Positions 1 through 29,221 of a DNA stretch of 33,860 nt are shown here, in pieces. The stretch's first letter is position 1; each line of letters opens with the position of its first letter. Under the pieces are notes generated by a model. The model was given only the letters and a program-made list of their open reading frames with translations. It was not told where the DNA came from and made no database searches. Source of the DNA: a virus (taxonomy: Duplodnaviria > Caudoviricetes); IMG/VR virus record IMGVR_UViG_3300037461_000406, positions 1-33,860 of that record; one strand, written 5' to 3'. Position numbers and translations under genes: made by a program.

Positions 1-3000
1 CCAGTGAACATCCCGTCCGGGGGCTGCATCCACCCACGCACGAGATCCCGTACTCGTTTGCGTCCGGTGGTTTCGTCGTCGAACTCCAGATCTTTAGGCT
101 TGGCGAGAGTGTTCACGTGCGCCGGGTCACTTTCCATGTCTTTCAGATCGGCAAGCAATCCCGGCGACGCCGCGTTTCCATAAGCATCGGTTTTGCGCAA
201 CGCAACCGTAGGCGCGAAGTATCCGCGGCGCATCCACTCGTAGACGTCGTTGGCGTGGACCACGTTCATTCCGAGGAGTTTAGCCCGCATGTATTTGAAG
301 AAATAGATCAGCCGGGCGAAGATCTCCTCCAACCACGAAGGAGGCGGTTGTTTCTGCCGGTTGCCGAGGTACTCCGCAAATTTGTCGGCCCGAGCCTCAC
401 TGTCGGGATACGCCTTGGTGAATTTGTCGTAGATCGCATCAGGTAACAGCCACTGCTCTACTACGTGCCAGAGCTCGTGATACGTGACCTCTTTGAAGGA
501 TTCCGGAGTCTTGTTCATCCCGAGAGACAAAGAAATGACCGCATGAAGAGGATTTCTCCAGGAAGTCAGTCCCCGCACTCCGATAGCCCCTTCCACGACT
601 CGGCGCTGAACTTCGGCTATACTGGCGTTGAACTGTTTCGCGTAACTCTCCCAGCTATCCGGCCTTACCGTTTGCGGGTCTAATGTGAGCCACGGTTTCA
701 GCACAACGTCGATCCGTTTCATCACGTCCGGAAACTGTGCGAGCCCAGACTCCTCTAACGCCTCCCGCAGATACGAAGCTACCTGATTGCCCCGTCGATA
801 CCCGCGCAGAAATTCCAGCATGGACCGACCCGACGAGGTGTTAATCGCGTCGTGGATCGCAAAGGACATGGACATTCCGCCCTTTGTGATGACCCAGTCC
901 CGACGAGGGATCATTGTCGCCCGGACCCCGGTAAAGGGAGGCACGTTTTTCTTTTCAGCAGACGTCATCCATGTCAGCCGGTCCTCGACGTCAGCCGCTT
1001 CGATCTCACCCAAAACTCTCCAGTACCTGTTGTTCGCGAGATCCCACTGCTTCTCCTCGCTGTATCCGGCGAACTTGGGGTCATGTGCCATTAGCCAGTT
1101 AAACTCGACCTCGGGACTGGACCCTCCGGAAAATCCTTCGATGTTCTGGATCGCGTGCTGGGTCTCGTGGATAATGGTCTCCACGAACGACGCATCTTTG
1201 TTGAATTGCGCACTCCCGACTCCAATCAGATTCTCGTTGGGATCGTAGAACCCTCCCACGCCCGGGAACACTTCGACGGAAACTTCTTTAAGCTGCGGGT
1301 AGATTCTGTAGAGATCAGGATGGTTCAGGATGTCTCCCAGTTTAACGGGGCTTAGAGACCGGCGTATGGGACCGTCCATCTTGACCGTCGCCGCTTTTCT
1401 CCACCCGACGGGACGGTTATTTATCCTCCACACCGCAGAAGAGGTGGACTTAGGATCGAGGACGTGCATTTTGGCGTCATCAATCTCGAATCTCCAGTAG
1501 GAGTCGGCGCCGAGATACCACCCGGTCTGTTTCCACACGTCCCCGGGAGAGGCTCCCTTTTCGGACAGTAAATCTCGCGCAACTCCAAGCTGAGTCTGCT
1601 TTCCTTTGTCCCCAAACGCACCCACGACGCCGCCGAGGAGAGGGGCCTCTTCTAACTTCGGCTCGGCACCAGGCTTTTCTCTTTCGGGTTCGCTAAAGCT
1701 ATCAAGTACACCTCGTCCTTTGCCAGCCGCGTCTCCTTGCTTCCCAGCGCGTGCAGCTTCTGTGCTAGATACGAGGTAGGCGTTGGCTGCCCACTCGTCT
1801 CCTTGTTGGATTGCTCGGGCATAAACGTCGGCTCCTTTCTTCTTCCCAAAGTATTTGAGAATGTGATGTTGATAATCCGTGGAGGTAAGTGCCTCGGGGA
1901 TGGGCTCGCGAGTCAACGCCTCGGACGCCACCGGGGTATTCTCCAGCGTGCCGTCTACCCCGACATGTTTATAAAAATTAACAAGATTGTCTACAAACTC
2001 CCGAGATTCCGCGAGCTCCTGCGGGATAAAGGTCTCAAACCACCACGCGGCCTTGGCCCGTTTGATGTTAAAGTCCTGAATGTGGTTTTTCCGCAGGGCT
2101 TTGTCGATTTTCTTCAAGTCGTCGTCCGCAAACCGGAATCTGAAGAGGTTTCCGTCGGGAGCCCCGGACTCGGACATCAGAAGAACTATGTTCTGCTTTT
2201 TCTGTGCGCCGATTATGTGGCTAAACGCCGCACGGATTGCGGTGATCGGGCCTTTCACGGTCATGGAAAGCCCGTACTCCGGTTCGCCACTGGTACTTGA
2301 CTCCAGACGTGCGAGAGTGGCCGAGTAGCTCTGGATACTAATGGGGTAATTCTTGAGCTCCTTCTCCACGTGATCCAGCAACTTCTTTGCGGGCTCCGCC
2401 GACGCCTCGGCTAGATCGTAAAGGTTGTCAGGCAGTTTCACGATGCCGGAAACCCGATCGCTCAGAGCGACAGTCACGATCTTGGGGTGCTCTTCCACTT
2501 CGGTCTGGTCAAACGTAAAGACCCAGGTGTTCCCATTCTCGGAAAGCGAGTATCCTTTGAAATCCCCGGACCGTTTGATCAGCCCGGCTAATGCGTTAGT
2601 ATAGACCTGAGACGCAGTCCGCTGCCCCTTCTTCACTAAAGAGTCGTTTTGCGCCCGTTGCCACGCGAGCTCTCGATACCCGAGGACATCCTTGTCGGCG
2701 TCGTAGATCTCGTTTTCGTACACCATGATCAGGTGCGGTTCGGCGCTCCAGAAGTAGGATTCCCTTCGAACGCCTGGGCCGTACCAGTAACTCAACGACA
2801 CGTAATCATTGTCCGGAGTGGCCGCGTCCATGCGCGCCTGAACATCCCCCTTGGACCAGGGGTTAGGCGCGACCCCCTCTTTCTTGTGCTGGAGCTCCAG
2901 CAGTTCATCAGCTTCCTCTCCCGTGAGGCCGGAGGTCCCGAGCGTGCTGAACGTCCTGGACTTTTCCTGAAGATCGCCGAGGCGCTGGAGTTCCTTGTTC

Positions 3001-4358
3001 GTAAGTTTCTTAGGGGGCCGGGCACCGCGCACGGTAAAGTACAGTTGCCCGTGAAACGAAACGATAGCCTGGGGCTCCAGAGAGATCAGGCTCACCATGT
3101 TATAAGACAGGGATTTCTTAGGCGCGATCTGAATAGACTCGTCGAAGTGGGTGGCTGACCCCCAGTGCCCGGCGCCCGTCGCGTACCACAAAGCCGCCTG
3201 GACTGCCGGAACGGGCATGTCCCACCGCTGCGCCGCGTCCACTATGTCCTCGGTGACTTCAGCTTGGAGATGCTTGGGCACCCGAAAGACGTTGCCCCAC
3301 ATGACATTGTGGCCCCAAAGCCGGGCTATGTGCCGGTCCACCACGACCGCGCCTTCCTTGGTCTTGGGATGGAGCCCCGCAAACACCATGGCCCCGATCT
3401 TCTTGCCGTACATGTCCTGGTACTCGGCCAGGTTAAGGTGGGTGAGATCCTCTTCCCAGATCCTATTTACCTTGGCCGCGATATTCTTGGTGGTGCCCTT
3501 GCCTTCGCCGCCCTCTATGGACCCGAACTCCTCCAGCCCGTTCATGACTTTCCCGAACGCAGTCTGCGCGCCCTGCGGAGATGCTCCAGCCGATAACACA
3601 GCCTGGATCATGAGCATCTTGTCTTTCTGGGGCTGGGTGTACTGCTTTCCTTCAAACCGAGTCATGTAGTCGTTCCAGTTACTATACCACTCGGTCTCTT
3701 TCTTGAACTCGTTAACCAGCTTGTCGATCAGCTTGACCCGGTCCTGTTTCTTCTTGGGAAGGATCGGAGTGTTCAGGACTTTGAATTCTTTCCCTGCTAT
3801 CTTTCGCCAATACTCCGTGATGGTTTCTTTGCCCTGCAAGAGATCTTTGGTCTTGGTGGTTCTCTCGTCACTGGCCTTCGCGAGCCCGTAGATCAAACCG
3901 CCTTTGTCCTCGGTAATGGAAACGATATAGTTGCTGCCCGCGGGAAATGGCCCGGGTCCCGTCCGCACCCCGGCTTTGCGCAATGCCTCTTCTGCCTCGG
4001 GAGTGAGCAAGCCGGCCTTGACCTTTTCTCCGGTCTCTTCGTCCACGATCTCTTCCGTTGACGTCGTGACCCACTGAGGCACCCGGCGCTCGGCTTTCTT
4101 TTTCTCCTTGAACATCTGGAGCTGCTCAGTCTCTCGTCCTACTTTAGCAAGTGACGCGGCCCCCTTCTGCATTTCGCCCAAAACGCTCTGACGATCCTTT
4201 TCCAGTTGGCCGATCAGATCCTCCAGCACTGATGCACCCGCGGCCTCTGGAGACGCACCTTTCTTCTCCGCTGCCTTTACTAACCCCAGAAGATTACGCA
4301 CTTCCACTTTAGAGAGCGGTCGCCCGTGTTTCAGAATGCACTGTTTTAGACTAGGCAT
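1..4358 (-). CDS. Giant polyvalent / internal virion protein, 3'-truncated by the window (>=1452 aa)
   Basis: Translated by hand from ATG 4358, which overlaps the upstream stop (TAATG): MPSLKQCILKHGRPLSKVEVRNLL...; I found no stop before position 1, which explains its absence from the ORF track. Motifs: VVVDRHIARLWG (~3313-3350) and AVQAALWY (~3183-3207), HhH-GPD glycosylase-like; VWKQTGWYLGADSYWRFEIDD (~1475-1540), LPD23-like; IIHETQHAIQNIEGF (HExxH at 1155-1169) followed by GEIEA; second HExxH YHELWH (465-479). Confidence 0.85.
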   Translation of the reverse strand, partial: MPSLKQCILKHGRPLSKVEVRNLLGLVKAAEKKGASPEAAGASVLEDLIGQLEKDRQSVLGEMQKGAASLAKVGRETEQLQMFKEKKKAERRVPQWVTTSTEEIVDEETGEKVKAGLLTPEAEEALRKAGVRTGPGPFPAGSNYIVSITEDKGGLIYGLAKASDERTTKTKDLLQGKETITEYWRKIAGKEFKVLNTPILPKKKQDRVKLIDKLVNEFKKETEWYSNWNDYMTRFEGKQYTQPQKDKMLMIQAVLSAGASPQGAQTAFGKVMNGLEEFGSIEGGEGKGTTKNIAAKVNRIWEEDLTHLNLAEYQDMYGKKIGAMVFAGLHPKTKEGAVVVDRHIARLWGHNVMWGNVFRVPKHLQAEVTEDIVDAAQRWDMPVPAVQAALWYATGAGHWGSATHFDESIQIAPKKSLSYNMVSLISLEPQAIVSFHGQLYFTVRGARPPKKLTNKELQRLGDLQEKSRTFSTLGTSGLTGEEADELLELQHKKEGVAPNPWSKGDVQARMDAATPDNDYVSLSYWYGPGVRRESYFWSAEPHLIMVYENEIYDADKDVLGYRELAWQRAQNDSLVKKGQRTASQVYTNALAGLIKRSGDFKGYSLSENGNTWVFTFDQTEVEEHPKIVTVALSDRVSGIVKLPDNLYDLAEASAEPAKKLLDHVEKELKNYPISIQSYSATLARLESSTSGEPEYGLSMTVKGPITAIRAAFSHIIGAQKKQNIVLLMSESGAPDGNLFRFRFADDDLKKIDKALRKNHIQDFNIKRAKAAWWFETFIPQELAESREFVDNLVNFYKHVGVDGTLENTPVASEALTREPIPEALTSTDYQHHILKYFGKKKGADVYARAIQQGDEWAANAYLVSSTEAARAGKQGDAAGKGRGVLDSFSEPEREKPGAEPKLEEAPLLGGVVGAFGDKGKQTQLGVARDLLSEKGASPGDVWKQTGWYLGADSYWRFEIDDAKMHVLDPKSTSSAVWRINNRPVGWRKAATVKMDGPIRRSLSPVKLGDILNHPDLYRIYPQLKEVSVEVFPGVGGFYDPNENLIGVGSAQFNKDASFVETIIHETQHAIQNIEGFSGGSSPEVEFNWLMAHDPKFAGYSEEKQWDLANNRYWRVLGEIEAADVEDRLTWMTSAEKKNVPPFTGVRATMIPRRDWVITKGGMSMSFAIHDAINTSSGRSMLEFLRGYRRGNQVASYLREALEESGLAQFPDVMKRIDVVLKPWLTLDPQTVRPDSWESYAKQFNASIAEVQRRVVEGAIGVRGLTSWRNPLHAVISLSLGMNKTPESFKEVTYHELWHVVEQWLLPDAIYDKFTKAYPDSEARADKFAEYLGNRQKQPPPSWLEEIFARLIYFFKYMRAKLLGMNVVHANDVYEWMRRGYFAPTVALRKTDAYGNAASPGLLADLKDMESDPAHVNTLAKPKDLEFDDETTGRKRVRDLVRGWMQPPDGMFT

Positions 4359-4609
4359 TAGTAAAGAGTCTCCCTGTTAACGATGGTCATTATGATTCGT
4401 AGCAGATCGTCGTCCTCTTTCAATATGAGTCTCCTTCGCGCCTCGCGCAGTTGCTCCTCATAATCAGGCTCTACGCGCCGGCGTCCAGGAGGTCTTCCGC
4501 CCGCCCATTCCGGGCCACCCGCGAGGATCAGAGACCCGGGAAGCCCGTACTTCGGCCAGGCAAAAACCGGAAGACTGTTCTCGGGTATGCTGAATACGTA
4601 GGTTCGCAT
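4358..4609 (-). CDS. Small hypothetical protein (83 aa)
   Basis: TAATG coupling at both ends; C-terminus 'RRRLILKEDDDLLRII'. Confidence 0.7.
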   Translation of the reverse strand: MRTYVFSIPENSLPVFAWPKYGLPGSLILAGGPEWAGGRPPGRRRVEPDYEEQLREARRRLILKEDDDLLRIIMTIVNRETLY

Positions 4610-5139
4610 TAGGGAATGTCACTGTAATCCTGAGCAATGGTCGAACGGTTGCCGTTAGAGTCAACGGTCATGACTATTCGGTCCACACTATCGGCGTCGT
4701 TGCGGAACGTGATCGCGGTGGTGCCGCCGCCCGTAGCCTCCCCCTTCACGAACGCAAAAATTGCCGAGAGCAGATGCTTTGCCTTTTTGGAATTCTCAAT
4801 CACAACTTCCCAGACGGCGGTGGCAATGTCGGAAGAAGTCACCGCAACAGCCACTGTGTAAATCACGACAGGCCGAAGCTGAATGTTACTTGTGGCGCTG
4901 ACGGCGCTTAGGATCACCAGGTCCGCATTGGTCTCGGCTTGTGTCAGGTCAAAGATATAAATACCCGGGGCATCGGTAGCGTCCAGCTCGGTCGGGTTCA
5001 CGTCGTTCGTGGCTGCGGTCGCCCCGCCGTCTTTGCTTATTTGGTCGGTGATGTTCGCAGCGTCTCCGGTTTTCGCGGCGCCTGTTCCGGCGTTCCAGGC
5101 AAACACAGCTACTTTTTGACTTGCTACGTTCTTAAACAT
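4609..5139 (-). CDS. Putative virion structural / fibre-associated protein (176 aa)
   Basis: Ala/Thr/Gly-rich, beta-strand-like ('TELDATDAPGIYIFDLTQAETNAD', 'TITFRN/VDSNGNRS'-type repeats); GGAGG RBS; coupled to neighbours. Confidence 0.6.
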   Translation of the reverse strand: MFKNVASQKVAVFAWNAGTGAAKTGDAANITDQISKDGGATAATNDVNPTELDATDAPGIYIFDLTQAETNADLVILSAVSATSNIQLRPVVIYTVAVAVTSSDIATAVWEVVIENSKKAKHLLSAIFAFVKGEATGGGTTAITFRNDADSVDRIVMTVDSNGNRSTIAQDYSDIP

Positions 5140-6628
5140 TGTGCCTCCAGGCGTCTTCCGGATAGTCTAAAGGTTGCAACTCCAAATGCCACACAATCGG
5201 GCCGTCCAGAGTTATATTGTCTAATATCAATGTCTCGTATCCAGCAAGAGATACAGTTATTTTGTGTGGAGAAAACTCATAAATCGTGTTGCCTCCAACC
5301 TCGTCATAGTAACCCCTACTGACTATTTGTTGCGTAATAGTCCCATCCGCCGCTGTTGTCGTGCTGAATCCATGTAATGTCTCGGCAACACTTGTTGAGC
5401 TACCATCCTTATTTTCCATTAACACAGTAGCTCCTGCAAGATTAGTCCCATTTTTATCTGCGATGTGAATGTCAATAGTGTAACGCCTATAAACCTTATG
5501 GTTATTGCCTGTACTAAGCCAGGTGAATGTCCATGCATCTACTATGGCATTGATGTATCCATTCCAGTAATTATTAAAGCGGCTGATAGCGAATGACGAT
5601 ATCAAAGGTCCATAACCATACAAATTCCTCGCATTCACTTGGTTAACATTGTAAAAATATGACGAATAAGTACAACCTACAGCCGTCATTCTATCAAAGG
5701 TTCCCGCTGACCCTGGAGATCGTAGGCCATAAGTCTGTGAGATGAACTTCAGGTCATAAAAATTTCCGTTATTGGGAGCATTCAAACTTATTTTACCGGA
5801 AAACGTACAATGCCATACTCTTGAGGAAGCATTACATGAACCAAGGGATACATTGCAATCCTTTCCTGCGTCGCCGGAAATGTCAGTAAACGAAATTCCA
5901 TACAGATATATTGTCCCTGTTCCGTCAATTAGATCCCCTGCATAGCTTTCGCTGGCGTATACGCATACCGCGCTAACATCACGAACGGTTTTGTATGTTT
6001 CATTTCGCAACCTTCCAAGAGTAAACACCGCTGCAGTTTTTACTGAAATGATGTCAACACTCGCGGCAGTAACCCAAGTGTTGTCTACAATCAGTAGATT
6101 GAATGTTGATGTGAAATAAGTTGATGTACTTCCATCTCCTACATTCAATATGCAATTCAGCCTATAGCTGGCTGCCCCTAGATCCCAAATCACTCCCCAA
6201 ATATCCTGAGTGACCGCAAGTGTACCATCTGCCCACACCGTTCCCGTACCATCAGCCGCATCAGAGCAGGAGATATTACTTATCGTTCTCCAACGCTTAG
6301 TGCTAGTGTAGGTTCCGTTCCCAGCACTAACATCAATGCTCTCCGTTTGTGCTACATCCCAGGCATCCGTTCCGGTAATGTAGAGATAGTCTGCTTCAGC
6401 CGTTTTCGCAGCAACGATGAACTTCACTACAATTGCTCGAAGCTCTACCGGCCTTACTGCATACGTCAAGGTAAACGTCTTACTGGGAGCACTAGCCGCT
6501 TTGAGTGATGTGCCAGTACCGGCCCTATCAGCGGTGACAAATGAGGCGAAGTCGGCAGGACTACCGGACGTTCCACCGGTGACGGCAACCGTATTGGTAG
6601 AAACTGTGTATGTGAAAGTCCCTGGCAA
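5132..6628 (-). CDS. Putative tail spike / fibre (beta-rich, beta-helix-like middle, Ig-like C-terminus; 498 aa)
   Basis: Thr/Ser/Gly/Asn-rich beta composition; C-terminal 'KNGTNLAGATV...TTAADGTI...KITVSLAGYET' resembles a carboxypeptidase-regulatory/Ig-like domain; TTG start directly after the upstream TAA; visibly lower GC than the flanks. Confidence 0.6.
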   Translation of the reverse strand: MPGTFTYTVSTNTVAVTGGTSGSPADFASFVTADRAGTGTSLKAASAPSKTFTLTYAVRPVELRAIVVKFIVAAKTAEADYLYITGTDAWDVAQTESIDVSAGNGTYTSTKRWRTISNISCSDAADGTGTVWADGTLAVTQDIWGVIWDLGAASYRLNCILNVGDGSTSTYFTSTFNLLIVDNTWVTAASVDIISVKTAAVFTLGRLRNETYKTVRDVSAVCVYASESYAGDLIDGTGTIYLYGISFTDISGDAGKDCNVSLGSCNASSRVWHCTFSGKISLNAPNNGNFYDLKFISQTYGLRSPGSAGTFDRMTAVGCTYSSYFYNVNQVNARNLYGYGPLISSFAISRFNNYWNGYINAIVDAWTFTWLSTGNNHKVYRRYTIDIHIADKNGTNLAGATVLMENKDGSSTSVAETLHGFSTTTAADGTITQQIVSRGYYDEVGGNTIYEFSPHKITVSLAGYETLILDNITLDGPIVWHLELQPLDYPEDAWRHNV

Positions 6629-6898
6629 TTACGGCCTCCAGTTCAACGCTTCCATAAATCCCGCGTCTGCTTTAAGGGTATCTCTTACAGTATCCAACGC
6701 TATCCAAGCCGCGGTAAATTCCGCCTTCACAGTTGCTGGAAGCTGATTGAATTTTCCCGCAGCGTTCATCGCCGCTAATTCGTCCAACGACCGATCAATC
6801 TCTCCCATGATCCTCTGAAACTCAGCCTTGGCTTCGTTGCTGTCGTCATACGCTGTTTTTGCCGTCCACCAGGCATCTAAATCAGTTGTAATACTCAT
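6629..6898 (-). CDS. Hypothetical helical protein (89 aa), possible fibre partner
   Basis: AAGGGAG RBS; abuts the fibre gene. Confidence 0.7.
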   Translation of the reverse strand: MSITTDLDAWWTAKTAYDDSNEAKAEFQRIMGEIDRSLDELAAMNAAGKFNQLPATVKAEFTAAWIALDTVRDTLKADAGFMEALNWRP

Positions 6899-6911
6899 TG
6901 TCGTGCTCCCT

Positions 6912-7388
6912 TTAGTTTTGCTTAATCGCTTTGATTTCTTTTATGTACCCGTTCTCGTTCCGGATGACTTCAAAATCCCACTTAGAGGGCGGTTTCTCCG
7001 GAACGTGAAGTAACTCTTGAAGATTATTCAACAGAGAGGTGATCTGTTTCAACGCCTGATCCACCCCGGATCGTGACGTTTTCAGGTACGCCATGACTTC
7101 GTTTGACACCCCTATGAGATCCATCTGGACTTTTTGAGATCCCTTGGTGTGGTCCGCCCGAAACTCGGCAATAACGTCGCGAAGTCTCTGAAGAAGTGCT
7201 TCGACGTTTTTCTGGTAAGTGTCAAGAATCCCCGTGATTTTCTCCGTCTCGGCCTCCAGGATCTTTCGTTCCCGGTCTTCCGGAGAATCGGGCAGGGCGT
7301 AGAGTTTCAGTTTAGACCCTTGGGAGTCCTCAACGTCCAGGTCTTCTTCCAGGAGTTCCGCCAGTTCTTTCTCACTTAGCATTTTCAT
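6912..7388 (-). CDS. Hypothetical coiled-coil protein
   Basis: Start moved to ATG 7388 (ATGA overlap with the upstream stop); C-terminal 'KWDFEVIRNENGYIKEIKA' beta-hairpin motif. Confidence 0.7.
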   Translation of the reverse strand: MKMLSEKELAELLEEDLDVEDSQGSKLKLYALPDSPEDRERKILEAETEKITGILDTYQKNVEALLQRLRDVIAEFRADHTKGSQKVQMDLIGVSNEVMAYLKTSRSGVDQALKQITSLLNNLQELLHVPEKPPSKWDFEVIRNENGYIKEIKAIKQN

Positions 7389-10300
7389 GATGTCAAGCAC
7401 TCCAGTATGGATCGGTATACGTTCAATTTAGACTCAATATCTTGTAGTGCCCGTTGTGCCGGCATTTTCACTACGATCTTTTTCCCTTTGTCCGTCACGG
7501 CGGGAACGCTAACGAGGGTTTTTTCCACGCGCCCCCGTTCCACTGTAGGCTGTTTGGTGTATGGCGTGGTGTCAAGCTGTTTCTCCGCAAACTTCGTCAC
7601 GGCGTCAGCAAAACTTTTATGCAGCTTCGGGTTTTTGAGATAGCTCCGTTCGACCACGTTCTCGTTGAGGTCGAGATCCTCCCGGGCCTCCACCATCCCG
7701 GCAATCTCAGTGCCTTTGTAAGCCGCGAGATTGTAGATGTTCACGTGGGAAATAGCGTCATCGTTTTTGCGGAGAAACGCCAGGGTGTTCAAATAGGTCT
7801 GCTTGGTTTCCCCCGGGAGGCCTACCATAATGTTCGGCACGAACGCGATCTTGTTAGCCCGGAGTTTCTCGACTGCGGCGTCTATGGTCTTTGTCCGAGC
7901 AGGTTTGTGAATCTTAGCCAGGATCTCGTCGTTGTAGGACTCGACGCCCAACTCCACGAACTTAATGTTGGCGCTTTGAAGAAACTCGTCATCGAACTTC
8001 AGTAATTGTGGAGCCGTAGTTTGCACCACGAACCCTTGAAACTCCGGGTTGAACTCTTTAATCTTGGTGAACAGATCTTTCACAAGACCGTAGTTTTCCG
8101 CCTGACCGAACGTCTTATCATCTAAGTAAACGAGGGAGAATTTGAGCCCTTTCATACCCTCAAGCTGGGCATCAATGCTTTCCGCGGACTCGGGTTTGAC
8201 CCCTTTCGGGACCGTGCAGAACGCGCATTTGTGCAAGCACCCTTTGGAAAGGCACAGTCGCGGGATCGTGGGAGTGCCCTGAAAATGCCTGGTATCGACT
8301 CCCGGGACTGGAGTGCGTCCTAGCGATTCATACGCGGACTCCAGAGAATCGTGAAACTCCACGTTCGGCGCGTCCTTGAAGTAGGACTTGTCAACGTACC
8401 CTCCGACGATGACTCTAACACTCGGGCCTACCTCGCTGGCGATCTGTTTAATGACCTGCTTGTTCACGTCCATCGCCGAGAACATGATCGCGTCGTACCC
8501 GGACTCTTTTATTTCTTTAGCCGCCGATACCGGGTTTCGAACAACCATCACATCGGAATCGGGAAGATTCTTGGCCGCGTTGGTGATCCATCCCGGGACT
8601 TCCCAGAAATCTTCCGGGCGCACATAGCCGGCGCGCCGTTGATACAGCTTGTCAAAGTATCTCTCACCGAACTCCTCGGTCTCTTCGGGACGCGCAACGG
8701 ACGGCGCGATCTGGACCAGGAGCTGTTTGCCTTCCTTTCCTTTAGGCTGGACGAGAATGTTCTGGAAGGGTTTGGCCTCCTGGGATACATCGCCGTAGGA
8801 CTTAGCCACCGCGGGCTTGGCTTGCTGCTCTTCAAAAGTCTTTCGGGTAGGAGCAGCCACAGGAATCTCCGGGACCGAAGGTTTGGCGGCCACGGCTTCC
8901 GGTGCTTCCTCCGCAGGTTTCTCTACAAGTCCGGAAAATCTGTCCGGCTGTTCATACGCCTCGATCGCCCGGGCATACTTGGCAGCCTCTTTAATGGCAG
9001 CCGCGGCCTCTTTGTTCTTGCTCGTCTGGTTGAAGAAATCCGCCTCGTCCAGCTTCTCTTGCCGGAGTTCCCGCCACTGCTCGGCCTGTTCCTCAGTGCC
9101 CTCTAGTCCGGCAGTCTGGGCCTCCTGCATACTCGCGAACACAGGTTCGGGCTCGATCTCTTCGAGCTCTTCCTCGGCGGGCGGTTTCGGGGAGGGCGGC
9201 ATCCCGGCCTCTTCGCCCGGGACAGCCCCCATTTCTTTTGGAGTGGTCTCGACGGGTTTGGGGAGAAACTCCTCCTCCAATTCTTCCAGAACAATCTGTT
9301 CAATAGGCTTTCCAGTCTCCAGGTTCTCCTTGATCGCCCCTGCCCGAACCCCCAGTCGTTTCTCGAAGTCCGAGATAAGTTTGTCCTTTTGCTTCTCGTC
9401 TTTGCGAAGAACGAATTCCTGGAGTGCTTTTCCGCCGCCCACCGTAGCCCCGGTCAGCATCGCGCCACTGGCCGCGCCAATCCCGCCAGCTTTAAGGGCC
9501 TCAAGAGTCTGCTTGTCGAAAGTCTTGAAGATGTAATCGGCTACGTCCTTGGGGGACATGGTAGGATTAGCCGCATAGTAAAGCCCCGCGACCTCGAAGT
9601 ATTGCTGGAGAAACTCTTCAGTTCCTTCCGCTATGGCGCTCTGGACCATCGCTTCCCCGAGTTCTATGGCCTCTTTCTTGACGGGGTTCTTGGCAAACCC
9701 CAGGGCGGACTTCATAGCGCCTATCTGCACTAAGTTTCCTGCGAACTCTAGAGGGGTAGTGGTCAAAGCAATAAACATTGCCGCTTCACGCGCCCGGTCT
9801 TCTTTGACGCCCTGTTTCTCAAGATCCTCCATAGCATTGCCGTAGGCGGTCATGAAGGTCAGGGCAAGTCCTGCGCCCCCGGACAACGCGCTCACAGCCA
9901 TAGGCGCGAGAAATCCGGCGGGAGCCGTAAGAATCTGCTCGGCAATGCTCGGTTTTCGTTTGAGGACTTCAGGGAAGAAATCGTTCACTACCCGCACGTT
10001 CTCCCGGATTTCCGGCTCGGCGGCGAGAAGGGAAGCCCGGACTTCGGGATCCTCAACCGGGGACGGAGGCGTGACTGCCCCCACTCCACCCTCGGCTACT
10101 TGCCGACGCATTCTTTCGGCAGGAGTCTCTTCGGGTTTGGCTAAAGGCGCGAGATAGAGAAGATCGTTCCACGTTTTGTGTATCTGCGGGATTGATCGAG
10201 TTGCCATGCGCCCGAACTGTTCAAACGATTTGGCGCCAAACGGGTCCTCCCCAGTTTCCCCGCCGCCAAAAATCATTGACAGAGCCCCGGGTATTTGCTG

Positions 10301-10726
10301 CCCCATCTGCATCTCAGCCGTGGCCCCTCCGGTTAAATAAGTGGGCTCCGGCTCTTGAGGCTGCGGCGTTACAGGCTGCCCCGTTTTGGTGTTGACTCCG
10401 CCCACGACCATGTTGGGGTGCCCTTCCAACTTAAACGCGGAGGGCCAGTGGAAAACCCCCTGGTCGTCGGCTTGCGGATAGGCTCCGGCGCGGTAGGCTG
10501 CGCGATAGTCATAGAAATGCCCGGGATCGTCCGGGTTCGGGTTGAGCCCGGTCTCTTCGCTCCATCCCTTGTACCACTCCTTGAAATCCTGTTCTTCGAT
10601 AGGATTCCATTCCGGAGGAGGCTCAGGCGCTTGGAGCTCCTGGGCTCCAGAGGGAAGTTGTTCGTTTGCCGCGGACTGCGAGGCGCCCGCCAGCTCTTCG
10701 TTGATGATGTCAAGAATAGACGGCAT
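7385..10726 (-). CDS. Internal virion (ejection) protein fused to a B12-binding-like + radical SAM module (1113 aa)
   Basis: N-terminal half has Gly/Ala-rich hydrophobic helices and 'AEGTEEFLQQ', typical of DNA-ejection proteins. C-terminal half has a Rossmann-like 'DAIMFSAM...VRVIVGG', CxxxCxxC (GCLHKCAFC, 8216-8239), 'LDDKTF', 'ELGVES' and 'IMVGLPGET'. Confidence 0.85.
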   Translation of the reverse strand: MPSILDIINEELAGASQSAANEQLPSGAQELQAPEPPPEWNPIEEQDFKEWYKGWSEETGLNPNPDDPGHFYDYRAAYRAGAYPQADDQGVFHWPSAFKLEGHPNMVVGGVNTKTGQPVTPQPQEPEPTYLTGGATAEMQMGQQIPGALSMIFGGGETGEDPFGAKSFEQFGRMATRSIPQIHKTWNDLLYLAPLAKPEETPAERMRRQVAEGGVGAVTPPSPVEDPEVRASLLAAEPEIRENVRVVNDFFPEVLKRKPSIAEQILTAPAGFLAPMAVSALSGGAGLALTFMTAYGNAMEDLEKQGVKEDRAREAAMFIALTTTPLEFAGNLVQIGAMKSALGFAKNPVKKEAIELGEAMVQSAIAEGTEEFLQQYFEVAGLYYAANPTMSPKDVADYIFKTFDKQTLEALKAGGIGAASGAMLTGATVGGGKALQEFVLRKDEKQKDKLISDFEKRLGVRAGAIKENLETGKPIEQIVLEELEEEFLPKPVETTPKEMGAVPGEEAGMPPSPKPPAEEELEEIEPEPVFASMQEAQTAGLEGTEEQAEQWRELRQEKLDEADFFNQTSKNKEAAAAIKEAAKYARAIEAYEQPDRFSGLVEKPAEEAPEAVAAKPSVPEIPVAAPTRKTFEEQQAKPAVAKSYGDVSQEAKPFQNILVQPKGKEGKQLLVQIAPSVARPEETEEFGERYFDKLYQRRAGYVRPEDFWEVPGWITNAAKNLPDSDVMVVRNPVSAAKEIKESGYDAIMFSAMDVNKQVIKQIASEVGPSVRVIVGGYVDKSYFKDAPNVEFHDSLESAYESLGRTPVPGVDTRHFQGTPTIPRLCLSKGCLHKCAFCTVPKGVKPESAESIDAQLEGMKGLKFSLVYLDDKTFGQAENYGLVKDLFTKIKEFNPEFQGFVVQTTAPQLLKFDDEFLQSANIKFVELGVESYNDEILAKIHKPARTKTIDAAVEKLRANKIAFVPNIMVGLPGETKQTYLNTLAFLRKNDDAISHVNIYNLAAYKGTEIAGMVEAREDLDLNENVVERSYLKNPKLHKSFADAVTKFAEKQLDTTPYTKQPTVERGRVEKTLVSVPAVTDKGKKIVVKMPAQRALQDIESKLNVYRSILECLTS

Positions 10727-10735
10727 TTAGTTCCC

Positions 10736-12208
10736 CTACTTTTTGACTCGTTTGTTCTCGGACACTCCTTGCTGACCGGACTGCTCGTACAGGAAGTTTT
10801 CAGGCAACGGAGCGCCTACTTTTTCCATTGCCGCTCGGAGTCTATTCAAGGCCTTGGGATTGTTTTGGTAAAGCCGGGCAAACGCCTGAATCGACTTGTC
10901 CATGGACTTGCCGGATTTGATCCCGGTCACGATCTTCGCCACTACCTCTTCAGGATTAGGTGAACTCGGAGCACCGACTGGTTGTGCGGGTTGGCCGCCT
11001 GGTTGAGGGGCTGCCGGACCTTGCTGAGGTTGGGCTTGTGGAGCACCCGGCTGTCCGCCCTCTTTCTTAAACTTGGCGCCGAACTGTCTCCAATACTCGT
11101 TCACTAACTGCCGTGACGCCTCCACCGCGTCTTTCATTTCCGGCGGCACTTGAGGATTTAGCATCTGCTCGAACATCGCCGCCGTCTTGGGATCTTTGTC
11201 CTTCATCATGGTAATCATCATCATCGTCATCGGGTTGGCTTGCGGAGAGAATTTGTTGATTAACTGTTGCGCCTGTTTGACGTTCGGCGGCATAGCGTCT
11301 TCCAGAGAATACATCCCAGTCCGTTTGCCCGTGTCCACGATCCTACCATCCGGATAAAACGCATGAACAGTCTGGACTCCTTCTGCATTGTAGACAGCAC
11401 GCATGATCGGGGCTTTGTTCTTGATCGCCTCTTGCCGAATCCGCTCTTTCTCCTGCGCGGCAAAGTCGGCCTGTTGCTGTTTAGTATCCATGTCGTACTT
11501 GCCCATCATCCATTTGTACTGCTCCAGCATCCCTTGCTTTTGAGATAGGGCTTGTTTGTACACCCGTTCGTGATGCTGTTTCTTGATCTGTTCCCAATAC
11601 GCCCGCTCGTCTTTGCTCAACTTCGGCAGGTCCAGGTAAATAGCTCGTCCCGCAAACACATGATTAAAGAGCTCGGGGAGTTCCTTGTCGCTCTGGACCA
11701 CGGCATCGTAAGGATTCATACCAAAGGGATTGCCCCCTATCTGGTCGAATACAATCTTCTCAAACTCGTCACGACTTGGACGCGGAGGCGGCACCCGGCC
11801 TCCCTGGATCCCCATGCCCTCCACGGGTTTGTTAGGATCATATCGTTTAGTTTTGTCATAAGGCATTCCTTCGCGCCGTTTGGCCTCTTCCGTGGGATCT
11901 AGCCAAGTCTCCGGCTGCACGAACATCTCGGGAAACATCCGTTGCATTTTGTCCGTGTCCCATTCCCCTTGAGGGTTCATCCCGAGCCGCGGGTCCGGAG
12001 GAGTCATCTCGGGACGTTCGGGCAGTGGAGGAGGCGCGCCCTCGGGCCGGGCTCCTTCGGCACTGGTAAATTCGGTGGCTCCCGGGGCAAACTGGGGGTT
12101 CTCCGTTCCCATGTTTGGCTTCGAGGCTTCGGGCATGTACTCCCATTCCTGGGGATTCTCGTTAAACACTTCCGGGCGATTAGTTAACTTTCTCGTATTC
12201 TCGGCCAT
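10736..12208 (-). CDS. Probable internal virion / ejection protein (490 aa)
   Basis: Gln/Pro/Met-rich, low-complexity and helical; lies between the tail genes and the large ejection protein; AGGAGG RBS. Confidence 0.6.
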   Translation of the reverse strand: MAENTRKLTNRPEVFNENPQEWEYMPEASKPNMGTENPQFAPGATEFTSAEGARPEGAPPPLPERPEMTPPDPRLGMNPQGEWDTDKMQRMFPEMFVQPETWLDPTEEAKRREGMPYDKTKRYDPNKPVEGMGIQGGRVPPPRPSRDEFEKIVFDQIGGNPFGMNPYDAVVQSDKELPELFNHVFAGRAIYLDLPKLSKDERAYWEQIKKQHHERVYKQALSQKQGMLEQYKWMMGKYDMDTKQQQADFAAQEKERIRQEAIKNKAPIMRAVYNAEGVQTVHAFYPDGRIVDTGKRTGMYSLEDAMPPNVKQAQQLINKFSPQANPMTMMMITMMKDKDPKTAAMFEQMLNPQVPPEMKDAVEASRQLVNEYWRQFGAKFKKEGGQPGAPQAQPQQGPAAPQPGGQPAQPVGAPSSPNPEEVVAKIVTGIKSGKSMDKSIQAFARLYQNNPKALNRLRAAMEKVGAPLPENFLYEQSGQQGVSENKRVKK

Positions 12209-12217
12209 GGGAGCCTC

Positions 12218-13030
12218 CTACCTCTTGGTATACTTAGACGTGCCGGCGAGGATGTCTTGTACTTCTCCGGGCTGGTTAGTGGGAATGCTTGTCGAGATCT
12301 GGCTGGCTTTCGACATAGCCTCCTGCCACCCCCGAGTATAGGTATTGACCGCTTCGCTGTACTGCCGAGCGTAATCCTGCGCGTACTCTTGCTGTCCTTG
12401 AGATTCAGCCTTAGCCAAAATGTTAGACATGCCGATTCCATACCCGGCGAGTGTGTCTCGCAGCACCATCCTTCGCACGTTAGGGTTCTCGTAATATCGG
12501 GACATCGCGGACTGGACTTTCATGTCCAGCGCCCGCAACCCGGGAGCCGCAATTCGCCGCGCTCTTTTCTTACCTTCCCGCTCGTCCCAGGTCGGACCGG
12601 CAAAGGTGGGAAGGTTCACTCCCTTGGGCAGCACGGTCTTGGAAATCCCGACGTTGTATTTAGGCTGCGCGTTTTGCCCACCCGTCTGCAATCCTCCGGT
12701 GGTCTTTGAATACGGCTGCGCCCACTGGTAATTGCTCCCTTTCGGGTAGTTCGCCGCGGAGTAGGGTTCCTGTCCACCCCCAGTCCCCGTGTCGTACCAG
12801 GGGTCTCCGGAAATTGTGTAGCCGGCGGGCTTCTGGTTACTGCGCCCTGTACCGTAGTAATCCCCGGGCACTGTAAAACCTCGGGAAGGTCCGGATGAAG
12901 GTCCGGCTTCCCCGGGTGTTTCTTCGCCCCCCGACGGTTCTGCCGCCCCAAACACCGAGCTCCAGTCCCCAGCGTCCCCGGCACCCTCGTCCTGGTCTTG
13001 GTCTGCGTAAGCCTCAGATAAAGTCGTCAT
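12218..13030 (-). CDS. Probable internal virion / ejection protein (270 aa)
   Basis: Gly-rich disordered N-terminus and Gln/Ala/Tyr helical C-terminus; first of the three-gene ejection cluster; TAATG coupling. Confidence 0.6.
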   Translation of the reverse strand: MTTLSEAYADQDQDEGAGDAGDWSSVFGAAEPSGGEETPGEAGPSSGPSRGFTVPGDYYGTGRSNQKPAGYTISGDPWYDTGTGGGQEPYSAANYPKGSNYQWAQPYSKTTGGLQTGGQNAQPKYNVGISKTVLPKGVNLPTFAGPTWDEREGKKRARRIAAPGLRALDMKVQSAMSRYYENPNVRRMVLRDTLAGYGIGMSNILAKAESQGQQEYAQDYARQYSEAVNTYTRGWQEAMSKASQISTSIPTNQPGEVQDILAGTSKYTKR

Positions 13031-13310: not shown

Positions 13311-13622
13311 TCAACCAGAGCGTAAACGACCCGTATACGCATGTTGAAGACGAACCTTCCGGGCCATGTCACGGATCTCTTTCGGTAGTTCCTGTTCGAA
13401 CTTGCGTATAGCCTTGCCTTGTTCCGGGCCGGGAGAAGGAAGAAAGTAACCTATGGCCTCCATCTGCCCGACAATCGGAAGCATCTTACTGAAATTCCGG
13501 ACCTCGTCACAAGAAAATCCGTTGGCAATACTCCATTCGAGAACTATTCCGGTTTCCTGAATCTGCTTCAAGTTGAATGCCTGAAGCGTCCTACGAAGTT
13601 TATAGAATCTTTCGAAGTTCAT
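13311..13622 (-). CDS. Small protein (103 aa), paralog of 13030-13266
   Basis: Start reassigned to ATG 13622 (TAATG overlap with the fibre gene stop). Confidence 0.7.
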   Translation of the reverse strand: MNFERFYKLRRTLQAFNLKQIQETGIVLEWSIANGFSCDEVRNFSKMLPIVGQMEAIGYFLPSPGPEQGKAIRKFEQELPKEIRDMARKVRLQHAYTGRLRSG

Positions 13623-14863
13623 TAAAAGCAGTCCGTCCCACACGTCCAGTAGTATAAGTATCCAGTGCAGTCACAGCATTGCGCGTCGTTACAACCGTAC
13701 TCACTGCCGAGAACAGTGTCAGCCCCGCACGTGCTCCCAGTGCCATCCGTGTGGTTTCCAGTCCCGGCATTACGGCAATCATTCCCTGGTGGCGGAGAAC
13801 AATTGAGAATGCGATGCACATCCCACTTTGCCTGATAAGCACCACCCAAACCAGTATTAGAGTGGTATACAACCGCCCAAACCCCGTGAACACCACATGA
13901 ATGTCCAGAAAACCCACAACACACCACACTGTCACAAACAGCCGTGCGACCGAACCCGGCGATAGTCTCCCACGTACCATCAGCAGCGTTGATGCGAAAC
14001 GATACAGTGGTCCCGCAGTCATCCACCACCTGAATAGTGGCATACGCTACGTGCCCTCCCACTCCGCCGCAGTTGGTGTTTGCCAGTGAAAGGGTATTGG
14101 AAACTCCGGAAGTGCTTGCCGACCCGAGCGAGAATCCGGTGCTTGCTCCGAGAAGCGACCATGTGTAAGGACCACAACCATCCTGTACAAACACCGAGAT
14201 GCTATTGTTTTTCGCTACAGTGTCCGGGGTACTGGCGTCGTCGAACGTCATCGCGATATAGCCGGGCGCTGTACAACATTCAACAGGCCGACAGGTGACT
14301 TCCAAAATGGTCTGGCACTTGTTGCCCGCGGCGTCGGTCATGTACACTATAATCCGATCGTCCGGCTCTGTCGCCCAAGCGCCGCCGTTGGGCTTGATCT
14401 CGACGGGAAACACCCGCGTCGGATCCATGTTGATTTCCAGTTGTTCTCCGGGCAAAGAACCAAACTGGGTCAACAGAAAAGCACTCCATTGCTGATTATT
14501 AACGCACTCAAACGGAGACAGCCCCGACGGACATTGGGACAAATTCGCGTGGCACTCGACGTTCTTCTCACATGTAGACGGCGAATAACACGAGATCAGA
14601 CACACTCCTTTGACAGGCGTGATCGGGTCAATATCCGGACCCTTTGTGGGCGGTGCTGTCGGAGGCCCGGGCAAGTCCGGATACCGATATTCCATGTCAT
14701 CATACCCGTCCTTCCACGGCTGCATGAACTCCGAGTGCTTCTGTACGGCCTTGGTCATTGCGTGAAACCAAGTAGTCGATTCCAGAAAATCAACGACGGA
14801 CTCGTCCTTTTTCTTCTGGTTCGGCATGATGCCGTAATCTTGCAGAATCTTTGTCGCGCTCAA
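13622..14863 (-). CDS. Cysteine-rich putative tail fibre / receptor-binding protein (413 aa)
   Basis: Follows the nozzle gene; Ig-like beta segments ('GPYTWSL', 'IQVVDDCG'); 26 Cys by my count; TTG start with GAGG upstream. Confidence 0.6.
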   Translation of the reverse strand: MSATKILQDYGIMPNQKKKDESVVDFLESTTWFHAMTKAVQKHSEFMQPWKDGYDDMEYRYPDLPGPPTAPPTKGPDIDPITPVKGVCLISCYSPSTCEKNVECHANLSQCPSGLSPFECVNNQQWSAFLLTQFGSLPGEQLEINMDPTRVFPVEIKPNGGAWATEPDDRIIVYMTDAAGNKCQTILEVTCRPVECCTAPGYIAMTFDDASTPDTVAKNNSISVFVQDGCGPYTWSLLGASTGFSLGSASTSGVSNTLSLANTNCGGVGGHVAYATIQVVDDCGTTVSFRINAADGTWETIAGFGRTAVCDSVVCCGFSGHSCGVHGVWAVVYHSNTGLGGAYQAKWDVHRILNCSPPPGNDCRNAGTGNHTDGTGSTCGADTVLGSEYGCNDAQCCDCTGYLYYWTCGTDCF

Positions 14864-19209: not shown

Positions 19210-19713
19210 TTAAGCAGCTTTCACCCAAGGATCCCGCCCCGCTGCTCGGGCGGCCTTTATCTGGTCCAGCGTCAACGCGCCGGGTTTTCTGACCTCTTCT
19301 ATCTTGCGCAGTTCAGGGGCTTTGCTGCCCATGTTCGTGGCCTTACGATAGGTGTTCTTGAGCTGGATCTTATTATCCCGAGAAACTGCGCGGAAATGTT
19401 CCCGGGTATCCCGTTCCAGCTTTTCCTCGTAGTCCCACATGGTCTGCTCGCCCCGGCGAATTCGGGCATCCACTCCGCCGTTCTTCCACAAATCGGCTTC
19501 GTAGAGTTTGCGCATGTCCCGTCCGTCGGGTTGCCGGAACTGCGCGTCGTCCGTTTCCACCAAAAGCACGCCCCAAGGCTGCCCGAAGGCCCGTTGTCGT
19601 CGGATGATAAATCGCTCGGCCATGCGGTCAAACACGATGTCCAACTTATTATCATACTCCTTCAACGTCTTTACGAATGCCCTGTCAGGAACGGGCGGGA
19701 CTCCCTTATACAT
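19210..19713 (-). CDS. Hypothetical phage protein (167 aa)
   Basis: Start reassigned to ATG 19713 (GGAGG upstream; overlaps the sulfotransferase stop); 'LKEYDNKLDIVFD...LYEADLW'. Confidence 0.75.
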   Translation of the reverse strand: MYKGVPPVPDRAFVKTLKEYDNKLDIVFDRMAERFIIRRQRAFGQPWGVLLVETDDAQFRQPDGRDMRKLYEADLWKNGGVDARIRRGEQTMWDYEEKLERDTREHFRAVSRDNKIQLKNTYRKATNMGSKAPELRKIEEVRKPGALTLDQIKAARAAGRDPWVKAA

Positions 19714-20356
19714 TCTTCCCCTCCAGAGTGACTTCATAGTTAGGATCGTTCAGAACCATGATGTCGTTTGCGTCCTTGTAGAAATTGTCCTTGTCCACGC
19801 GCACGAGTTTCTTTTCAAACGTGGCGATTTCCCGCGGGTTCTCGTCCACGCCCTTGGCCGCTTCGGAGATGTCGAACTCCACCTCCAGGAATTCCATAAT
19901 CCCCCGAATGGTTGACTTGGGGTATTTCATGATTTCGGCGTATCGGACGTAATGAGTCGGGATGTTCATTCCCTCAAGGTATCGCCGAGCCCGTTGAATG
20001 GATGTCCAGGGATCGTCCTCCCAAAGAGTTCGTTGGACCATCAACGATGCCACGATCTCGGTGATGTCCCGCTGCATAAAAATAACCTTGACGGGCCTGT
20101 CCAAGGGGAGCAGCGCGATGTAAGGCGTGACTATTTTAATCGCCTTGTTCGCGGTCCAGGAAGGGGGGTGGTCCTGGATCTCCTTGATGTTGTCCAGTTC
20201 CAGCACGCCATGCGGGTCTACCGGATTCACGGGATTCAGGTGTCGATCGCTCACTAGAATATCAAACCCGGCGAATCGCAGGATCCGCATCATCATGCTG
20301 GTTCCCGAACGCGGAAATCCCGAGACTACTAGGGTGGCGCCGTCAAGGTCAATCAA
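19706..20356 (-). CDS. PAPS-dependent sulfotransferase (~216 aa)
   Basis: 5'-PSB loop 'VVSGFPRSGTSMM', 3'-PB motif 'VIFMQRD...VAS', and 'VRYAEIMKYP...IMEFL'. True start probably TTG 20356 (GAGGA 8 nt upstream); the ORF-track extension to 20593 overlaps another gene. Confidence 0.85.
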   Translation of the reverse strand: MIDLDGATLVVSGFPRSGTSMMMRILRFAGFDILVSDRHLNPVNPVDPHGVLELDNIKEIQDHPPSWTANKAIKIVTPYIALLPLDRPVKVIFMQRDITEIVASLMVQRTLWEDDPWTSIQRARRYLEGMNIPTHYVRYAEIMKYPKSTIRGIMEFLEVEFDISEAAKGVDENPREIATFEKKLVRVDKDNFYKDANDIMVLNDPNYEVTLEGKNV

Positions 20357-20360
20357 AAGG

Positions 20361-20531
20361 CTAATCCTCGGGCATCTGTTCCTTGATTCGTTTCTTGCGC
20401 TTGGCGATCTTGTCCTCGACGTCAAAGACACTGAACACGATGTCCTTTGGCTCGTCCGGTTTGGGCGAGGACGGGGACAGAATCGCCTCCTTTGCTTTCT
20501 TGTAGACATTCCGGAGGGTGTAGTCGGCCAT
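20361..20531 (-). CDS. Small Lys-rich hypothetical protein (56 aa)
   Basis: MADYTLRNVYKKAKEAIL...; GAGGAG RBS; begins 1 nt after the kinase stop. Confidence 0.65.
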   Translation of the reverse strand: MADYTLRNVYKKAKEAILSPSSPKPDEPKDIVFSVFDVEDKIAKRKKRIKEQMPED

Positions 20532-20532
20532 G

Positions 20533-20865
20533 TTACTCCTCGTATGTGGTTCCTTCCCAGAGCTCGCCAAAGGGAAGTTGAATTTCGATACACTCTTTGA
20601 ACGTGGACTGCAATCGCTTGCGCACTTCTTTATTCGGGCTTACGCACGAGATGATCGCGACTATCCCGAGCTCCTCGTATTGCGCGGCATTATGCGCGAG
20701 TTGTTCCTGATTGCGCAATCGCCCGACGTCTGAGTAGTCGGGATTCTTATAGAATTGCCGAAATGCCTCGCCGTCCAGCACAACACTGTTCGGAATTTGC
20801 GCAGCAATCTTCTTCGCAAGCGTTGTCTTCCCCGAATTTTTTCTACCAGTAAGCCAGTAAACCAA
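20533..20865 (-). CDS. cysC: Minimal adenylyl-sulfate (APS) kinase-like protein (110 aa)
   Basis: 'YWLTGRKNSGKTTLA' P-loop, 'VLDGEAFR', 'DYSDVGRLRN', 'IISCVSP...R', terminal 'YEE': the CysC motif order, but C-terminally abbreviated. Confidence 0.8.
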   Translation of the reverse strand: MVYWLTGRKNSGKTTLAKKIAAQIPNSVVLDGEAFRQFYKNPDYSDVGRLRNQEQLAHNAAQYEELGIVAIISCVSPNKEVRKRLQSTFKECIEIQLPFGELWEGTTYEE

Positions 20866-25497: not shown

Positions 25498-25776
25498 TTA
25501 TCCTGGGTATTCTTTAGGCACACTTTGATCATAGAGTTTATGACACGTCGGACATAGGCAAATCCCATTGTCTAAATCGAACTGGAGTTCAGGATGTTTG
25601 GACCTTCGCAAAATGTGGGCTGCCTGAACAACAGGTCCATGATACCCACACGCCCGACAAGTCCAGCCATCTCTCGCGAGGACCGCACGCCTCCAATTCT
25701 GACTGTTAGGATCACTTTTCAGATCTCGGTCCTTCGCGTAGTTTCTGGGACTTTTTCCGGTCCTGACGGTCATCAC
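25498..25776 (-). CDS. Small HNH endonuclease (92 aa)
   Basis: 'WRRAVLARDGWTCRACG...AAHI...NGICLCPTCH'. Confidence 0.85.
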   Translation of the reverse strand: MMTVRTGKSPRNYAKDRDLKSDPNSQNWRRAVLARDGWTCRACGYHGPVVQAAHILRRSKHPELQFDLDNGICLCPTCHKLYDQSVPKEYPG

Positions 25777-28960: not shown

Positions 28961-29221
28961 CTACCTCACGGCAATGCCCTGCGATTCCTCCAGCCGAACA
29001 GCTTCCCGAGCGAGCTCATTCTCCAGCTTCATCTCGGCCAGTTTGTCCTTGGGGGTCTTGCGCAGATTCTCTATGGACTGGATATATTGCCCCACATCCT
29101 TGGCAAGAATCGCGGATAACAACTCTCTTTCCCGGTCGATAGCTCGTTTGCGCTCCCGGTCGAGAGCCCAGTATGCGTAGGCTGCGAACAGCACGATCAC
29201 GCCAACTAGTCCTTCAAGCAT
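28961..29221 (-). CDS. Single-TM coiled-coil protein (86 aa)
   Basis: Start reassigned to ATG 29221 (GGAGGAG RBS); N-terminal TM helix. Confidence 0.7.
   Translation of the reverse strand: MLEGLVGVIVLFAAYAYWALDRERKRAIDRERELLSAILAKDVGQYIQSIENLRKTPKDKLAEMKLENELAREAVRLEESQGIAVR

Follow-up and report, generated by a model that had tools for sequence, protein, structure and literature searches.

Phage polyvalent proteins are giant chains that combine several enzymes, are encoded among virion genes and are predicted to be injected (PMC5512222). Similarly, gp50 of phage N4 and gp71 of phage DEV are the largest products of three adjacent cysteine-poor genes and carry their cargo like beads on a string, thought to refold in the cell (PMC13434306, PMC11445570). 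A third group, the class I cobalamin-dependent radical S-adenosylmethionine (SAM) enzymes (MgmA/QCMT, 9ccb; TokK; CysS; TsrM; OxsB), combines a five-stranded N-terminal Rossmann domain with a partial barrel and a CxxxCxxC motif (PMC12931638). We analyzed a 33,860-nucleotide stretch of DNA, hereafter the window, from the Caudoviricetes record IMGVR_UViG_3300037461_000406, in which one gene shares features with all three. This open reading frame (ORF) of 1113 amino acids (aa), P0001 (7385..10726, minus strand, as are all window genes and domains described below), has no internal stops. It encodes the leading half of a giant ejection-type (polyvalent) protein that is divided between two ORFs, and it carries a radical SAM module whose N-terminal domain is predicted to have a B12-binding-type fold. 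This module recurs across hundreds of phage proteins, in many cases next to a predicted DNA glycosylase, which points to DNA bases as what it may alter.

The original prediction had recognized an intact radical SAM module, and all its named motifs are present in P0001: VIVGG (residues 772–776), CxxxCxxC (C830, C834, and C837), GVES (927–930), and GLPGET (969–974). The Pfam Radical_SAM profile matches residues 826–985 above its cut-off (E 7e-14, 52.8 bits vs. 29.5), and the B12-binding profile matches residues 735–778 under its own (E 0.0045). All 24 NCBIfam families matched by P0001 score far under their cut-offs, the best being PhpK (64.5 vs. 600 bits). As the stand-alone relatives start at the equivalent of residue ~667, the module boundary lies there; the predicted module thus stands, but its extent of ~370 aa at ~7600–8730 becomes ~385 aa at 7577..8728 (residues 667–1050). 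According to Pfam, the family alignment and the predicted structure, it consists of a B12-type Rossmann domain and a partial TIM barrel, with no additional C-terminal domain. The Rossmann domain (8291..8728) is five-stranded in the model and shows family conservation of S750, of GGY (775–777), and of a family-specific aromatic insert, YY..Y...GY.R..DFWE.P.W. The three cysteines of the cluster motif (8216..8239) are kept in 286 of the 287 listed family members defined below. Given this conservation, the module very probably performs active radical chemistry.

We searched three length classes with residues 660–1065 of P0001. Matches were obtained in 59 proteins of similar length (P0001 included), 147 of 1949–5000 aa, and 163 shorter ones, with at least 120 matches listed for each of the last two classes. 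Among the 299 matches listed, 287 cover at least 300 residues, and these are the members in all counts given here. They exist in two forms, as cargo of giant virion-type proteins or as the product of a stand-alone gene: 173 are fused, so that the fusion is recurrent, 105 are of at most 460 aa (part of the short members being contig-end fragments), and nine lie between. Complete stand-alone ORFs number 57 in the fetched loci and 50 after dereplication. In a FastTree phylogeny, 78 short forms group separately as a clade (support 0.94), and 171 of the 173 fused forms fall within a single clade of 186 members. Most of the family is viral: IMG/VR yielded 77 loci, versus seven in 185,579 species genomes by a single strict pattern. 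Among 50,697 GenBank phage records, we found two weak matches (23–25% identity) and no close one. The open-access literature searched holds no description of this module family, and the term "radical SAM" is missing from the main text of a jumbo-phage survey (PMC7824862).

Members are also present in Halovulum and Aliirhizobium genomes. No relative of two cellular carriers carries another member in the samples taken (0/400, 0/400, and 0/60), which argues against a conserved cellular operon; the Aliirhizobium region is absent from the 60 genus relatives examined, and a Mesorhizobium relative gave no further plasmid or viral match. As the cellular copies are sporadic, their gene neighborhoods represent single cases. 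Three of these relatives (L084:9899-14827, L085:8965-12145, and L102:5866-9160) each lie within a run of small-molecule genes: aldolase II, aldehyde dehydrogenase, PduO, and nucleosidase-like; kinase and inositol-monophosphatase-like; agmatinase-like and phosphotransferase.

A six-frame profile search of the window revealed a feature overlooked by the original prediction, an open-ended ORF (3..4358) that leaves the window edge and encodes at least 1452 aa with one cysteine (C7). In the nearest relative of P0001, the 4013-aa P0060, both halves form one chain: P0060 aligns with P0001 residues 30–124 and 526–1063 (60%) and, four residues further, with residues 76–906 of the second ORF (55%). Since P0060 is collinear with both ORFs, the window's gene is a split form, of which the second ORF is the second half. 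This half contains a putative DUF7178/Ogg2-like helix-hairpin-helix glycosylase-type domain at residues 216–394 (3177..3713; E 6e-6 with our own profile, and E 0.0018, below cut-off, with Pfam DUF7178). It also contains LPD23, a marker of polyvalent proteins, at residues 923–966 (1461..1592; Pfam E 1.6e-14). P0060 carries an ART-PolyVal domain, and ART-PolyVal, LPD22/38, InPase, GNAT, and RadC are the polyvalent-type domains found among the relatives. Disparate enzyme domains and marker domains in one large chain, as described for polyvalent proteins (PMC5512222), are thus seen when the two halves are taken together. The locus differs from them in that two ORFs, separated by five genes, encode the chain. 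The original prediction mentioned radical SAM domains as previously described from polyvalent proteins, which the main text of Iyer 2017 (PMC5512222) does not support: it describes no radical SAM or B12 domain and lacks the terms "radical," "adenosyl," "B12," and "cobalamin."

We give next to no weight to an assembly chimera or a chance fusion. The whole stretch is found in one run alone: a 57.5-kb contig of run X1 covers 3000–12500 with zero differences, and as X1 is possibly the window's own source, this contig is not independent support. Runs X2 and X3 gave short pieces only for the region, for which no RNA run is listed; the run containing this DNA is a wetland metagenome. Because the spanning contig may be the source, the collinearity of P0060 with the window's protein, from the N-terminus through the module and into the second half, disposes of a chimera better than reads do. 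The 173 fused proteins and the conserved scaffold flanking the module on both sides also argue against it.

The scaffold of P0001 includes a conserved Gly/Ala-rich N-terminal domain (residues 225–480; 9287..10054), likely membrane-inserting, although only mildly hydrophobic (peak 1.49). It matches 124 proteins, P0001 included, near their N-terminus, and most are giant chains; LPD, ART-PolyVal, or InPase domains were found in 13 of 24 scanned carriers. Only four of the 123 other proteins with this domain have the radical SAM module, which is therefore an optional cargo of a common scaffold. One relative of the domain weakly matches a virion RNA polymerase PHROG. Between scaffold and module lies the predicted Glu/Pro/Ala linker (residues 481–666; 8729..9286), whose residues 481–660 are composed of 20% Glu, 16% Ala, and 11% Pro. 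Split first halves end with a tail of ~50 aa closing on L-E-C-L (7388..7537), which alignment shows to be missing from the unsplit P0060. Its invariant cysteine is common to 12 other aligned first halves, and a separate search gave 14 other matches. The start of the second half (4134–4358), which bears its sole cysteine, C7, is likewise absent from P0060. These two terminal pieces may serve to join the halves again, possibly by a disulfide.

P0001 is the third gene of a 270/490/1113-aa run following head and putative tail genes, and the largest of these three adjacent cysteine-poor genes. The window covers a stretch of phage morphogenesis genes, with those for terminase, portal, and major capsid protein upstream of P0001 on the same strand, in keeping with the location of polyvalent proteins among late virion genes (PMC5512222). 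The putative first (270 aa, 12218..13030) and second (490 aa, 10736..12208) ejection proteins, designated as such from position and composition, contain no cysteine. Outside the module, the three genes and the second half have two cysteines in 2941 aa, where the content of ten other structural-type genes in the window would predict 20; near-absence of cysteine is a described trait of ejection proteins in N4-like phages (PMC11445570). The same pattern extends across the family: 131 of the 173 fused proteins (median length 2546 aa) have only three or four cysteines in total, and in P0060 all four cysteines of the 4013 aa fall in the cluster-motif stretch. The gene immediately upstream is cysteine-free in 45 of 53 dereplicated fused loci. 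The median of extra cysteines is 0% in fused modules and 1.35% in short forms, relatedness not being controlled in this comparison. At least 12 cysteines occur in four of 56 dereplicated fused ORFs, which may belong to another type. Gene order, the N-terminal domain common to giant polyvalent proteins, and the cysteine purge thus agree with the ejection-type context first proposed, and by analogy with these systems the giant protein is likely packaged in the virion and ejected. Two observations weigh against this: neither the 270- nor the 490-aa gene has a Pfam or PHROG match, and 12 of 28 other window genes, mostly short, have no cysteine, the portal having one in 723 aa. The putative tail genes also lack Pfam and PHROG matches; P0001 has no PHROG match, and its relatives match mostly unnamed giant-protein PHROGs. 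Directly upstream of the cysteine-free cluster, a 413-aa protein without family match (13622-14863) has 26 cysteines.

An undelivered module, acting on packaged DNA or virion proteins at a late stage within the producing cell, cleaved off, or carried as a noncatalytic passenger, appears quite improbable. The gene position suggests expression with late genes, and HExxH peptidase-like motifs of the second half could process the chain. Against this, extra cysteines are purged from the module only when it is fused, the stand-alone genes have small early- and replication-type genes as neighbors, and the cluster ligands are retained almost throughout the family. The delivered form finds its closest parallel in N4 gp50 and DEV gp71, from which it differs by its iron–sulfur (Fe-S) enzyme cargo in place of an RNA polymerase and with which it has no direct sequence match. 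The model for giant ejection proteins is that they pass into the cell unfolded or like loosely strung beads (PMC13434306). Unfolded passage would imply that the cluster is loaded inside the cell, so that oxygen sensitivity tells little about the host and the initial suggestion of an anaerobic host is weak. It is further weakened by the family members in Halovulum and Aliirhizobium, which we take to be aerobes, and by phage M6, a Pseudomonas phage with a radical SAM enzyme.

The AlphaFold2 model of the module has a mean predicted local distance difference test score (pLDDT) of 93.7. Foldseek ranked AprD4 first (E 1e-15), and VIA gave a top pair of MgmA (Z 23.4, root mean square deviation [rmsd] 3.4, 319 aligned) and AprD4 (Z 23.3, rmsd 3.4, 359 aligned), followed by CysS, RimO, MiaB, OxsB, and TsrM, with RimO and MiaB at Z ~21. 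The expected resemblance to B12-binding radical SAM structures is thus borne out, MgmA, CysS, OxsB, and TsrM being among the top matches. The class I enzymes match at Z 15–23, whereas identity is 12–16% and the module here is without their extra C-terminal domain. AprD4 diol dehydratase (6fd2) and ArsL, antibiotic-pathway enzymes, share the two-domain fold at 16–17% identity. A methylthiotransferase, the label given to several homologs in source databases, is rejected because the extra cysteines are absent: MiaB and RimO have three additional N-terminal cysteines for a second cluster, and P0001 has no cysteine before residue 825.

The N-terminal subdomain, as first proposed, does model as a B12-binding fold. 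Compared alone with 48,161 chains, its 17 best matches (Z 9.3–10.8, rmsd 2.4–3.0, ~107 aligned) all belong to this fold group, receiver domains reaching Z 9.3; two of the 17 are AppA SCHIC, which we take to be a non-B12 member of the group. With Foldseek this domain had no match at E ≤ 0.001, and its profile found no B12 protein among PDB sequences. The model thus indicates a B12-binding-type Rossmann fold. As AprD4 and ArsL own such a domain and bind no cobalamin (PMC12931638), the fold does not imply cobalamin binding here. S750 and GG775-776 are almost invariant in the family. By their motif register both would suit the cobalamin tail pocket, but position 748 is A, M, or L in the family, not Gly. 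The motif GE[GA]E, presumably the GEGE signature of class B cobalamin-dependent radical SAM enzymes, occurs in none of the 287 listed members. A PduO cobalamin adenosyltransferase gene lies three genes after one cellular copy, a single case. From these sequence features, the use of a cobamide or cobalamin by the module appears about as probable as its absence.

These structures also suggest other targets. Once injected, the module may modify a conserved protein or RNA of the host, for instance as an MgmA-like cobalamin-dependent C-methylase, redirecting host machines as ART and GNAT cargo do. VIA places MgmA first, and its two-domain build is of comparably small size; RimO and MiaB are also among the top matches, ART-PolyVal and GNAT domains occur in the same chains, and both the acidic module and a few-copy target would fit. 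We nevertheless regard this as unlikely: MgmA is tied with AprD4 and only 15% identical, auxiliary-cluster cysteines are absent (110 of the 173 fused modules have exactly three cysteines), and the company of a glycosylase is left unexplained. Equally unlikely in our view is a small molecule as substrate (a free nucleotide, a nucleoside, or a sugar-like compound), for example a defense signal or antiviral metabolite, with the module possibly a cobalamin-free dehydratase like AprD4. The best Foldseek match indeed binds no cobalamin, and the invariant polar residues R823, Y867, Q902, E925, and N965 would be appropriate for a polar ligand. Frequent co-cargo includes InPase, Nudix, and phosphatase domains, and cellular relatives adjoin nucleosidase-like, aldolase, kinase, inositol-monophosphatase-like, and agmatinase-like genes; these neighborhoods are, however, the single cases mentioned above, and a few slow enzymes would be unable to drain an abundant pool.

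The company of the module points instead to DNA. DUF7178 is the commonest neighbor of the stand-alone genes, near 12 of the 35 whose context amounts to 5 kb or more, and in 16 of all 50 loci, and it is also the commonest partner in the fused form. Its gene overlaps the stop codon of the enzyme gene in three of the 50 loci, whose enzymes are 41–50% identical. Among the matches listed, 62 of 120 module-bearing giants contain DUF7178, versus seven of 56 control giants sharing the N-terminal domain (Fisher value 4e-7, which overstates independence because DUF7178 clusters on the tree and the profile was built from enzyme-adjacent genes). The DUF7178 family profile matches Ogg2 (3fhf, E 0.002; 9o00, E 0.008) over its C-terminal half, and K109 and D129, invariant in 9/9 sequences, are in register with the catalytic Lys and Asp of Ogg2. 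DUF7178 (L062:5982-6587 and relatives) thus seems to be a DNA glycosylase/lyase of Ogg2-like type, which the open-access literature searched does not name. A Dam-type DNA methyltransferase gene directly precedes two stand-alone genes. In the module, R703, R823, K871, K1027, and many aromatic residues are conserved, and these basic and aromatic residues would suit a nucleotide.

Phage M6 gp53 and spore photoproduct lyase (SPL) provide precedents for radical SAM chemistry on DNA bases, and gp53 is encoded next to a glycosylase-fold enzyme (PMC8989533). By contrast, gp53 matches SPL, belongs to a thymidine hypermodification cluster acting after replication, and, as far as the cited account extends, is not reported as virion cargo (PMC8989533). 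No such cluster was seen among the recurrent neighbors of the stand-alone genes. Copy number also bears on the target. Radical SAM turnover is slow. With few injected copies (~4 for N4; PMC13434306), a slow enzyme would favor a target present in few copies.

Several observations weigh against a role on DNA. DUF7178 presence clusters on the tree (22 changes vs. 40 when shuffled). In the reverse test, 15 DUF7178 loci were found, of which three were seeds; within the fetched DNA, none of the 12 independent ones has the enzyme (the contig of one bears the fused form elsewhere), so that an obligate enzyme–glycosylase pair is unsupported. Enzyme and DUF7178 may each simply be frequent cargo with an early action. 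The module carries a net acidic charge (median −6 in fused and −8 in short forms), unlike many DNA-binding enzymes; its nearest structures act on protein (MgmA) and sugar (AprD4), and the few cellular relatives sit amid small-molecule genes. All considered, a DNA base is a plausible but tentative target.

A ~90-aa SAM-lyase-like gene lies near eight of the 35 stand-alone loci and five of the 12 enzyme-free DUF7178 loci; its presence in both sets gives the appearance of shared early-gene regions. This family (L016:6824-7105, L062:7568-7870, and six more loci) has a pattern G-x-W/E-x-S/Q, compared by eye with Svi3-3, and no PDB match; the candidate SAM lyase label comes from Atlas only (0.86). 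Atlas also proposes DUF3574 as a candidate for it, and two more lyase-like families occur near the enzyme, one resembling DUF3293. A SAM-lyase-like domain within the giant protein's second half was rejected (hhalign probability ≤5.3% vs. three small profiles). The neighboring gene might suggest that the module itself is a SAM sink that starves SAM-dependent restriction, as the SAM lyase of phage T3 does. This is very unlikely: radical SAM cleavage is slow and requires reductant, against a rate of 9.5 per second for Svi3-3, the large number of invariant residues in the pocket implies that there is a second substrate, and the lyase label is that of a candidate.

We thus tentatively favor an enzyme that is injected without its cofactors, matured by the host, and acts on DNA bases early in infection. 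The split giant protein would be packaged and injected along with the genome; as in the N4 model, the module would travel without cofactors and host Fe-S machinery would load its cluster. A SAM-derived radical would then alter DNA bases at the start of infection, the target being a base in incoming phage DNA beside the entry channel or in host DNA. Enzyme and glycosylase could act in parallel or in series, blunting modification-dependent defense or processing damaged bases, and the stand-alone gene would perform the same task after early expression. A bolder version seems improbable, namely a widespread, cobamide-dependent phage family that relies on host Fe-S and B12 supply and writes a new carbon-linked mark on bases of the entering DNA, the Ogg2-like glycosylase reading or removing marks, as an injected anti-restriction system.

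Injected phage effectors known to us so far are transferases, nucleases, polymerases, and hydrolases. If the proposal is true, a cargo dependent on an Fe-S cluster, a reductant, and perhaps B12 would bring radical chemistry into play before any phage gene is expressed, and a DNA or nucleotide product would represent a new modification chemistry, possibly a new counter-defense. Polyvalent proteins are already known; to these, the present analysis adds the split form, stand-alone genes, an association with a glycosylase, and a contrast in cysteine content, in a large family almost restricted to uncultured viruses. The natural ~385-aa stand-alone genes provide a ready construct with which the substrate question can be addressed without the phage.

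The five small genes between the halves (162, 89, 498, 176, and 83 aa; 4358..7400) have no Pfam or PHROG family and lie in a region of lower GC content (0.44–0.48 in 5001–7000 vs. ~0.55). The Thr/Ala-rich 498- and 176-aa products look like fiber or decoration proteins. Sulfotransferase and adenylylsulfate-kinase-like genes are found in the morphogenesis region (19706-20865), and sulfation of a virion or host surface component by their products is possible. A sigma-factor-like gene (29206-29730) and a transglycosylase SLT gene (25773-26255) lie among the head genes. Finally, the large subunit of the terminase (30227-32611) contains an intein-like insert at residues ~502–691.

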